Assembly: GCF_033153115.1 (NCBI RefSeq)
Contig: NW_026889803.1
Location: 36,146,001-36,210,000 of the forward strand
Direction of reading: 5' to 3'
Origin: Saccostrea echinata
Lineage: Eukaryota
Length of the DNA stretch: 64,000 nucleotides
The notes beneath the pieces are model-generated. The model was given only the letters and a program-made list of their open reading frames with translations. It was not told the DNA's origin and did no database searches. Below, piece after piece: positions 50,151 to 52,070 of the stretch (its first letter is position 1; each line of letters opens with the position of its first letter). The translations under genes and the position numbers were made by a program.

Positions 50151-52070
50151 ATGGCAGAGTCATTCTTTGAATTTCTGTAAGTTATTACATTATAACATCA
50201 ATGTCTTAATTACGATATTTCGTTATTTATTTATTTATTATTATTATTATTATTTTTTTTTTTTTGGTAAAATGAAGTTTAAAAGTTTATAGTTAATTGT
50301 ATTTTTTATTAAGATTAATGTTTTCAAATTAATAAAAGTTGAGATAATACATTGGATATTATTCCTATACGTGAAACATAAAATTACTTAAAAAATTATT
50401 GTTATTTAGGTTCATGAAAATTTCAATGGATTTTTTTTATTTTGATATTTTTTTTTAATATCTTATAATAAATATAACTAAATAAATAAAGCAGAACAAT
50501 CACAAAGTTATTTGCGAATAAAAAAAAAAGTGCACAAACTTATAACTTAGGTTATCTTTCTTGGACCATAAATGAAGCCTAAACAATCATTCTTTGTTGA
50601 ATTTTCCAGAGATAACAATAAAAACCAGGAGTATGTTACCTCTTCACCTGAAAGAACGTTTCAGGATTTCGAAGAGGAGTGGATTGAGCTGGGGCACAAC
50701 TTTTCTCTAATTTTTGATTCAGGGTAAGTTATACTTTCAACGCTTTTCTTTTGTTGCTTTTGATTTTTAAGCCCTATAAAAGAAGATAAACCAAAAAATA
50801 AAGAAATAAAATTAAATTTAAACAGAAAATATTTCAAATTTACCTGCTGTCGTCTAGCATCTTTGAATCCTTTTTGACCAAAGATAAATTTCTTTTTCTT
50901 TTTTTTTTTAAATTCACTTCCTTTTATTTAAAAAAAATAGAAATTCTCCGAAGGACCCCCACAAATCCCCTTCATCAAAAAAGAGGAAGATTGAAGACGC
51001 TGAGGATTCCATGATTTTGAATAGAAAGAAATTCGCAAAGAAAACTGTAAAAGCGGGGATGTTCACACAAGAGATGGAACAAGAAGACCCTTTGTTAAAA
51101 AAGTTCAGGTATTGAATTTATGTTCTAGTGTCGAGTTTTTTTATGCAACAAAATTCAGTGTCTTGAACAGATTAAATGTAGCTGAAATTCTTAAAACATC
51201 AAATGTATACTCTTACATGTATATATATTTTTTAAAATTATTTTTCTTGACAATCTTTTAAAAAGTTTAATTCTGTTATATGGTTGTTTAAAAAGATTTC
51301 GTTACTTTCTTTGAAACAGACAGGAAAATCCTTCAAAATATGTCAAACTGGAGAAGAAAATGAGTACTAGAGATTTGCTGGATACTTCGTTCACCCAGAA
51401 ACGCCAGAGACGCGCATCTACAACGATGTTCCAAGAGACATGGACACCAACTCAACCCCAGCCAGCGTACAGCCCAATGTCTCCACCGGACGTCCCTCTG
51501 TCAACTCAACCCCCGCCAGCGTACAGTCCAGTGTCTCCACCGGACGTCCCTCTGTCAACTCAATCCCCGCCAGCGTACAGTCCAGTGTCTCCACCGGACG
51601 TCCCTCTGTCAACCCAATCCCCGCCAGCGTACAGTCCAGTGTCTCCACCGGACGTCCCTCTGTCAACCCAACCCCCGCCAACGTACAGTCCAGTGTCTCC
51701 ACCGGACGTCCCTCTGTCAACCCAATTCCTGCCAGCGTACAGTCCAGTGTCTCCACCGGACGTCCCTCTGTCAACCCAATCCCCGCCAGCGTGCAGTCCA
51801 GTGTCTCCACCAGACGTCCCTCTGTCAACTCAACCCCTGTCAGCGTACAGCCCAATGTCTCCAACGATCGTCCCTCTGTCAACCCAAACTCAAACCTCGG
51901 GATTTACGCCGATTGAAGCACCGGGGTTCTGGAATAAACCCATCCAGTTTCCTCTTAAAGAGGAACTGGATGCCCTAAATGAACTTGTGGACAATGTCCG
52001 AATGGACCTTCTACAGACATCTATGTTGGTGAATTATATTCAGGACTTCATGAAAAAATTTCAATATTGA
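50151..52070 (+). CDS. 4-exon nuclear protein with PPxY/YSPxSP (Pol II CTD-like) repeats, 352 aa (exons 50151-50176, 50610-50723, 50941-51108, 51320-52070)
   Basis: Three phase-2 GT-AG introns join in one open frame (1059 nt); acidic FQDFEEEWIEL, NLS PSSKKRKI, 8 x 18-aa PPAYSPVSPPDVPLSTQx, C-terminal amphipathic helix. Confidence 0.82.
51449..51887 (+). repeat. 54-bp coding minisatellite (8 units)
   Basis: Unit ccgccagcgtacagtccagtgtctccaccggacgtccctctgtcaacccaatcc. Confidence 0.97.

Follow-up and report, generated by a model that had tools for sequence, protein, structure and literature searches.

In the oyster Saccostrea echinata, a virus-like element carries a spliced accessory gene that is real and conserved. 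The gene lies in a 64,000-nt window (the whole stretch of DNA that was analysed, positions 36,146,001 to 36,210,000 of contig NW_026889803.1), and the reading preferred here, at a probability of about 0.5, is that its product, largely disordered and lacking a DNA-binding domain, serves as a nuclear adaptor and likely shows phosphosites resembling those of the RNA polymerase II C-terminal domain (CTD) to kinases and CTD readers. The positions of the gene, its parts and the element that carries it are collected in Table 1.

Table 1. Window coordinates of the spliced gene, its parts and its host element
Feature	Position	Strand	Remarks
Complete Maverick/Polinton	31148..53320	.	22,173 bp; AGTAGT...ACTACT ends; carries the spliced gene
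Putative Pol II promoter	50063..50099	+	TATAAA at 50063, TCATT 31 nt downstream
Exon 1	50151..50176	+	acidic-aromatic start (MA-E-x-F-F type), common to both subfamilies
Exon 2	50610..50723	+	holds the conserved acidic-aromatic helix (50659-50703)
Exon 3	50941..51108	+	KKRK; EDS block and first half of the helix pair, both conserved
Exon 4	51320..52070	+	rest of the helix pair (to 51359), variable P/S/T linker, C-terminal helix, stop
Eight 54-nt (18-aa) units	51448..51887	+	one Y-S-P-x-S-P core each; Tyr codons at 51468 + 54n
C-terminal helix	51948..52067	+	about 38 aa, amphipathic; best conserved part (alignment, pN/pS)
Partial second copy of the C-terminal helix, broken	52114..52212	+	3' UTR; several sisters have it as well
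Putative poly(A) signal	52370..52375	+	first AATAAA downstream of the stop

Gene structure and transcription

The original prediction of a hidden gene with four exons was borne out by the sequence. All three introns (50177-50609, 50724-50940 and 51109-51319) begin with GT and end with AG at the places proposed, and the joined exons form 1059 nt, i.e., 352 amino acids and a stop, with no internal stop codon. The putative nuclear localization sequence that had been read from the upstream exons is also present (PSSKKRKI, coded at 50969-50992, with the basic, NLS-like KKRK at 50978-50989). The 37 amino acids of exon 2 include nine D/E and six F/W/Y residues, and the helix within them appears activation-domain-like by its composition, while the three to four spaced hydrophobic residues of the C-terminal helix would make that helix coiled-coil-like. 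The C-terminal helix has a pN/pS of 0.08-0.30 in all ten sequence pairs compared. The competing frame of the 51371/51440 ORF, which had been named as a possible alternative, was ruled out and dropped, as stops interrupt each of the two remaining frames over the linker in all 14 copies tested and the frame in use in none of them. Upstream of the gene, 11 of 13 copies have a TATAWA at a distance of 57-117 nt from the ATG, and the segment given in Table 1 is likely its Pol II promoter, evidence that is weak because the surrounding DNA is AT-rich.

Two of the three junctions were recovered from sequencing runs, each in a single contig of a run only guessed to be RNA (50176/50610 in run X3, 50723/50941 in run X6), and one X3 contig spans exon 2 exactly and continues with the first nine letters of exon 3. 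The last junction, 51108/51320, was found in none of the eight runs examined; it is accepted because the RefSeq prediction XP_062616923.1 of Saccostrea cucullata (P0001) has the same exons, with identities of 8/8, 35/37, 53/55 and 228/249, and because the Logan ORFs P0047 and P0067 of a relative run through it. The S. cucullata protein has one repeat unit fewer than the window protein. Expression is near silent in the three oligo-dT raw-read libraries examined, which yielded 2, 8 and 13 reads over this stretch, a good part of them partial; gaps in contig coverage carry no information on expression.

The exon structure differs between copies. Eleven sister loci (L034, L046, L062, L064, L085, L086, L099, L100, L102, L103 and L104) have an AG/GT donor within the exon 3 of the window, near 51027, and thereby an extra intron that the window cleanly lacks, and intron 1 is missing in five sisters (L086, L099, L100, L101 and L104). 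These apparent differences show gain or loss of introns among copies of the element.

The host element

The spliced gene is the last gene ahead of the right terminal repeat of the element. The terminal inverted repeats are 182 nt long (98%) and the element is flanked by a perfect 6-bp target duplication, GTGGAC (31142-31147 and 53321-53326). Matches above the Pfam cut-off were obtained for DNA_pol_B_2 (pPolB) and rve (integrase), and below it for Pox_A32 (ATPase, E 7e-4) and Peptidase_C48 (protease, E 2e-3). The ORF at 36001-37326 resembles a double-jelly-roll capsid protein (Atlas features 0.99; DJR-like_dom on 30% of the cluster). All structural hallmarks of Maverick/Polinton (adintovirus) elements are shared (terminal inverted repeats, target duplication, pPolB, integrase, ATPase, protease and double-jelly-roll capsid), and no RNA polymerase was found among the ORFs of the element. 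Intact vertebrate Mavericks are described as intron-free in the available part of PMC8097293, whereas the oyster element has an accessory gene of 4-5 exons and a pPolB that is split by a 149-nt GT-AG intron (41079-40931, - strand). Oyster Mavericks thus have spliced genes, with introns that are gained or lost between copies.

Several other ORFs of the element were recorded. A fusion ORF at 32615-33631 (+) combines a CARD domain with two PC4 (co-activator p15) domains. A 60-aa ORF with a KVRF motif at 31742-31924 (+) matches PP1c_bdg at E 1.2e-4, below the Pfam cut-off; the match is of the GADD34/ICP34.5/DP71L type, and the product is likely to counter eIF2-alpha shut-off. At 45223-45954 (-), a 243-aa ORF without Pfam matches has an N-terminal hydrophobic stretch and 13 ten-residue repeats rich in Thr, Gln and Pro.

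Family and subfamilies

When the genome of the same oyster was searched for the last exon, 53 of the 150 candidates scored were matches, and 48 of these 53 were kept after removal of three low-complexity matches and two second hits at one place. A same-strand Maverick ATPase lies within 30 kb upstream at 20 of the 48 kept loci (tested against 62 of 150 ATPase places), and a terminal repeat falls within 18 of the 50 extracted family loci, three pairs of which overlap. Maverick ATPase matches and tail matches are strongly clustered, most of them on four contigs (C5, C6, C33 and C36 of G000). The family comprises about 50 related places in this genome, plus a second subfamily. A profile of the tail only collected 58 proteins, the named ones all from Saccostrea, Ostrea or Crassostrea/Magallana; the named matches of three word-index searches, two of which scored the best 8000 candidates, were from Ostreidae only, and a scan of IMG/VR with the tail profile gave 53 pattern matches, none of them confirmed. 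As far as the word-index searches reach, this unnamed gene family appears to be oyster-specific, and it accounts for oyster genes that are mislabelled 'RPB1-like' or taken as host genes in databases.

The conserved blocks are the acidic-aromatic start, the exon 2 helix, KKRK with the EDS block, the helix pair over the last junction and the C-terminal helix; the P/S/T-rich linker that separates the C-terminal helix from the helix pair ranges from 9 to 221 aa among the relatives. The second subfamily, type B, is homologous to type A in the last helix (hhalign 96.7%, E 4e-10), has no linker between its two last helices, and was found at 40 places in the same genome (G000, including L065-L084) and in 21 database proteins (P0082-P0102). 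A C-terminal K[RHK]VxF, a putative PP1-type RVxF motif, is present in 15 of the 21 type-B proteins and in one of the 58 type-A proteins, and the C-terminus of the window protein does not contain it. One type-B protein has RVTF at this place, which fits a PP1 motif and not a reading as a c-Myc-like NLS.

AlphaFold2 models of one protein of each type (P0012 for type A, P0095 for type B) consist of separate helices and disordered chain, with a pTM of 0.28 for both and a pLDDT of about 90 over the C-terminal helix of P0012. Fold searches with such models are therefore weak, and Foldseek gave no match to viral models at E 0.001 with these low-confidence queries. Searches of PDB sequence profiles returned no match in one case and two at E 0.5-0.8 in the other, the ESM Atlas held no usable match and NCBIfam no meaningful match for the family protein. 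Across the Pfam, model, fold and PDB profile searches there was no folded or DNA-binding domain; a C2H2 zinc finger is absent (no Pfam match and a single Cys in the window protein), as is a polymerase domain from every relative scanned. A two-copy complex prediction of the C-terminal helix scored 0.02, which counts neither for nor against self-association.

Conservation of the CTD-like motif

The original counts for the array in the window were all correct, i.e., eight 18-aa repeats, seven with YSP(V/M)SP and five with PPxY or LPxY. The seventh unit has Cys instead of Tyr, and S2, P3, S5 and P6 are present in 8 of 8 units. The 18-aa spacing departs from contiguous heptads (Tyr every seven residues, di-heptad unit), and the window-type protein has no match to the RPB1 repeat of Pfam (PF05001), a profile that gave 0 matches in a search of the same genome, a result without weight since the controls were likewise unmatched.

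Because eight copies in one array represent a single event, the relatives were examined; 87 sequences were reduced to 47 with both linker anchors and then to 25 groups. Y[ST]Px[ST]P is present in 18 of the 25 groups, against 0.3 expected from shuffling, a figure that measures conservation and not separate events, as the groups share ancestry and P-values from shuffling or the binomial overstate their independence. Amongst the groups found by the tail profile only, which are free of repeat bias, 9 of 11 have the motif. Over 91 distinct Tyr-anchored 7-mers, S/T is found at position 2 in 61, P at position 3 in 66, S at position 5 in 62 and P at position 6 in 54; positions 1, 2, 3, 5 and 6 are held, and positions 4 (mostly A/V) and 7 (mostly E/G/P) vary. 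The exact YSPTSPS occurs in none of the 58 relatives, and the motif is missing in 7 of the 25 type-A linker groups and in all 21 type-B proteins. The check on retention of YSPxSP had a favourable outcome, since it is kept in most of these groups and the remainder of the repeat varies; Y-S-P-x-S-P is the sole conserved element of the variable linker. The motif has been amplified at unit lengths of 7, 9, 14, 16-20, 17, 18 and 56-60 aa, a range within which the 18-aa spacing of the window array is one variant.

The commonest spacing is 7 (8 of 25 groups), and a Y1-Y8 pair occurs in 13 of 58 relatives. Contiguous runs of 4-10 heptads were observed in 11 of 17 chosen sequences, with a longest run of 10; position 7 in the heptad runs of sisters is often Glu, Asp or Lys. 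The PF05001 cut-off was passed by 3 of the 17 relatives tested, and three relatives carry the NCBI label 'RPB1-like'. The earlier description of the heptads as spaced rather than contiguous thus holds for the window and fails for these sisters, and the CTD likeness is therefore stronger than in the window array alone.

Most lineages encode Ser2 by AGY and one does so by TCN, which indicates either selection on the residue or separate origins. On a tree from an alignment that includes linker columns and has an unresolved base, period 7 requires at least four gains or losses. Comparison by blastn of 26 last exons with the host RPB1 CTD locus gave matches of 18-29 nt only, one of which lies in the CTD (E 0.002) and is explained by the shared peptide, so that the comparison speaks neither for nor against capture of the repeats from the host gene. 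In one lineage that lacks YSPxSP (L057, L058 and L060; P0029 and P0055), the linker contains LxCxE, possibly by chance, as the close relatives P0034 and P0036 do not have it.

Alternative explanations

The same linker could be a generic, multisite substrate of MAPK, CDK or GSK3, i.e., a proline-directed phospho-switch that tunes how stable, soluble or condensed the protein is, with Tyr serving as an aromatic sticker and a convergent likeness to the CTD that involves no CTD reader. P-x-S-P is also a MAPK consensus, and exon 4 contains 21 S/T-P sites. The freely variable unit length, the lack of conservation of T4 and S7, and the retention in type B of one YSP and an SPTP site without SPxSP all agree with such a switch. 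It would need neither a dominant period of seven nor a Tyr directly before the first SP, yet 35 of the 49 distinct [ST]Px[ST]P sites have a Tyr immediately in front of them, compared with a background of 3.9% (nine further sites are preceded by C, N, F or H), and this explanation is considered rather unlikely.

Alternatively, selection may act on one YSPxSP docking site, with neutral slippage producing the remaining copies, so that copy number drifts in a tolerant linker. The number of YSPxSP copies ranges from 0 to about 10, even among close copies (1 in L037 and in P0002, 4 in L033, 7 in the window), and two lineages (L043 and P0051) have amplified units that lack the motif. Variants among the eight window units comprise 11 non-synonymous and 3 synonymous changes, so the window array as a whole is loosely held; one of the variants falls in the five core codons, in numbers too few for significance. 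However, most of the amplified units, of very unlike lengths, hold the whole motif, and the heptad runs retain Tyr, SP and SP despite divergence at positions 4 and 7. Drift around a single site is accordingly judged improbable; it is compatible with a CTD-type reader acting on that site.

The original prediction offered a CTD mimic or a titrator of WW proteins, with overlapping, phospho-switchable motifs; the first half gained from the retained YSPxSP and from the contiguous heptads in sisters, and the second did not survive the comparison. Under the WW reading, PPxY/LPxY would recruit or titrate NEDD4-family ligases or YAP under the control of the phosphosites, as in the Smad linker, where phosphosites beside a WW-ligand motif act as a switch. 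The window does have four PPxY and one LPxY, and PPxY is also present in the L032/L033/L037/L038 lineage, but only 5 of the 58 relatives and 4 of the 25 linker groups have it ([PL]PxY is in 13 of the 58 relatives), its two prolines vary among the window units (5/8 and 7/8), and a Tyr in a Pro-rich linker easily makes PPxY. A role as WW ligand is thus highly improbable, and PPxY would be at most a lineage-limited gain. A non-regulatory role, e.g., as a virion core or scaffold protein with the repeats as mere spacer, is compatible with the failure of the searches to return a known family, a fold or a solved relative, but is scarcely credible for a spliced gene with its own TATA promoter, in a terminal accessory region apart from the capsid module, whose product combines an NLS, acidic-aromatic helices and phospho-motifs, with a PP1-type motif in type B.

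Proposed role and significance

Under the preferred reading, that of a disordered nuclear adaptor, the protein would enter the nucleus by means of KKRK, where its acidic-aromatic N-terminus would contact a general factor or co-activator. Copies of the protein would associate with one another by the C-terminal helix and so multiply the Y-S-P-x-S-P sites, which would be phosphorylated at S2 and S5 by CDK7/9/12/13 or MAPK and then bound by single-site readers. Candidate readers of single sites are Pin1, capping enzyme, CID, SPOC and CTD phosphatases. As an outcome, the genes of the element itself may be favoured, or host transcription helpers may be diverted. The repeats would act as a ligand or decoy and not as a substitute for the CTD, because the window array is out of heptad register, the runs in sisters do not exceed 10 heptads and their seventh residue is often charged; replacement of the CTD by the family protein is unlikely. 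A more specific version, an oligomeric 'mini-CTD' mimic on which CDK7/CDK9 write and which draws in CTD readers for the element, with type B acting on that phosphorylation cycle from the opposite side by recruiting PP1 through RVxF, can be proposed tentatively and is open to considerable doubt. The PC4 and GADD34-like genes and the PP1-type motif of type B are circumstantial, and fit an element invested in host phospho-regulation.

If these repeats are read as a CTD, the gene represents a new route by which host transcription is steered by a virus-like DNA element. It would also be among the first concrete leads to the control of expression in Mavericks, which have no RNA polymerase. The natural variants, which range from no heptad to 10 and include arrays both in register and out of it, also provide a series for probing which CTD functions need heptad periodicity.

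Comparison with known systems

Compared with the CTD of RPB1 (PF05001), the family has the same Y1-S2-P3-x-S5-P6 core and, in sisters, contiguous runs of 7 aa, whereas its repeats are not joined to a polymerase body and lack T4/S7, an uncharged position 7 and a length of at least 17 consecutive repeats. The host RPB1 is at a separate locus (G000:C8) and has 43 motif copies, against 10 in the longest family run. According to the available part of PMC13377220, positions 1, 2, 3, 5 and 6 of the CTD are held and positions 4 and 7 are variable, SP motifs and Tyr form its essential grammar, and Mediator binding requires periodic Tyr, a minimum of about 17 consecutive repeats and an uncharged residue 7. 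The accessible sections of PMC6548728 put the minimal CTD unit at the di-heptad for yeast and at the penta-heptad for mammals, and report no CTD function for out-of-register single heptads in either. The window protein has the grammar of SP and Tyr and lacks the periodicity and length; the sister proteins have the periodicity of Tyr, lack the length and are often charged at position 7.

CTD-like arrays were also observed outside the family. An ORF for a ZNFX1-like helicase, longer than 1976 aa (G000:C60:2729073 onward; L126:4073-10000, +; Pfam ZNFX1, AAA_11 and AAA_12), starts with about 26 contiguous CTD-like heptads, in which position 2 is mostly Arg, Ser or Lys, and its head-to-head paralogue (L125:1-3882, -) has none in the first 400 aa. 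That a host helicase of antiviral type has a CTD-like array too weighs against the preferred reading, as arrays of this kind may form easily in this genome. A 797-aa RS-rich ORF without Pfam matches (G000:C54:9781922; L129:4530-6920, +) contains three CTD-like heptads.

The suggestion of an E1A-like early regulator stands as an analogy only. Like adenovirus E1A and the adintovirus 'Oncoid' proteins, the family protein is a small, disordered, motif-rich accessory protein of a pPolB element, without a DNA-binding domain and encoded near the genome end. Oncoids are defined by LxCxE/CK2, CR1 and CxxC in the available text of PMC8502044, but LxCxE with a CK2 site, CR1 and CxxC are absent from the four exons of the window (LxCxE occurs in 3 of 58 relatives), and no likeness of the family to E1A or Oncoids in sequence or fold was found. 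The terms 'CTD', 'oyster' and 'splic' are absent from the available text of PMC8502044, the annotation supplement of which may name the gene, and the CTD is unmentioned in the accessible portions of 10.1101/2024.03.25.586562, 10.64898/2026.10.13.758929 and PMC8097293. No published report of polinton CTD heptads or of this family was found in a search that covered the subscription literature thinly. Nor, in the available parts of the sources consulted, was there a report of a virus carrying a CTD copy; the viral proteins found there bind the CTD instead. Thus influenza polymerase and gammaherpesvirus ORF24 read the host CTD, as far as these sources describe them, whereas the family protein carries CTD-like repeats itself.

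The nearest analogue of the oyster family is ZNF768 of placental mammals, which, in the available part of PMC6344866, likewise has a CTD-like array of variable number between conserved boxes, with the array absent in relatives and T4/S7 not kept. As a zinc-finger protein of the host that binds DNA and has Glu at position 2, ZNF768 is unlike the oyster family, which belongs to a mobile element, has Ser/Thr at position 2 and has no recognisable DNA-binding domain. The finding fits two known kinds, the mimicry of short motifs by viruses and the occurrence of CTD-like arrays outside RPB1.
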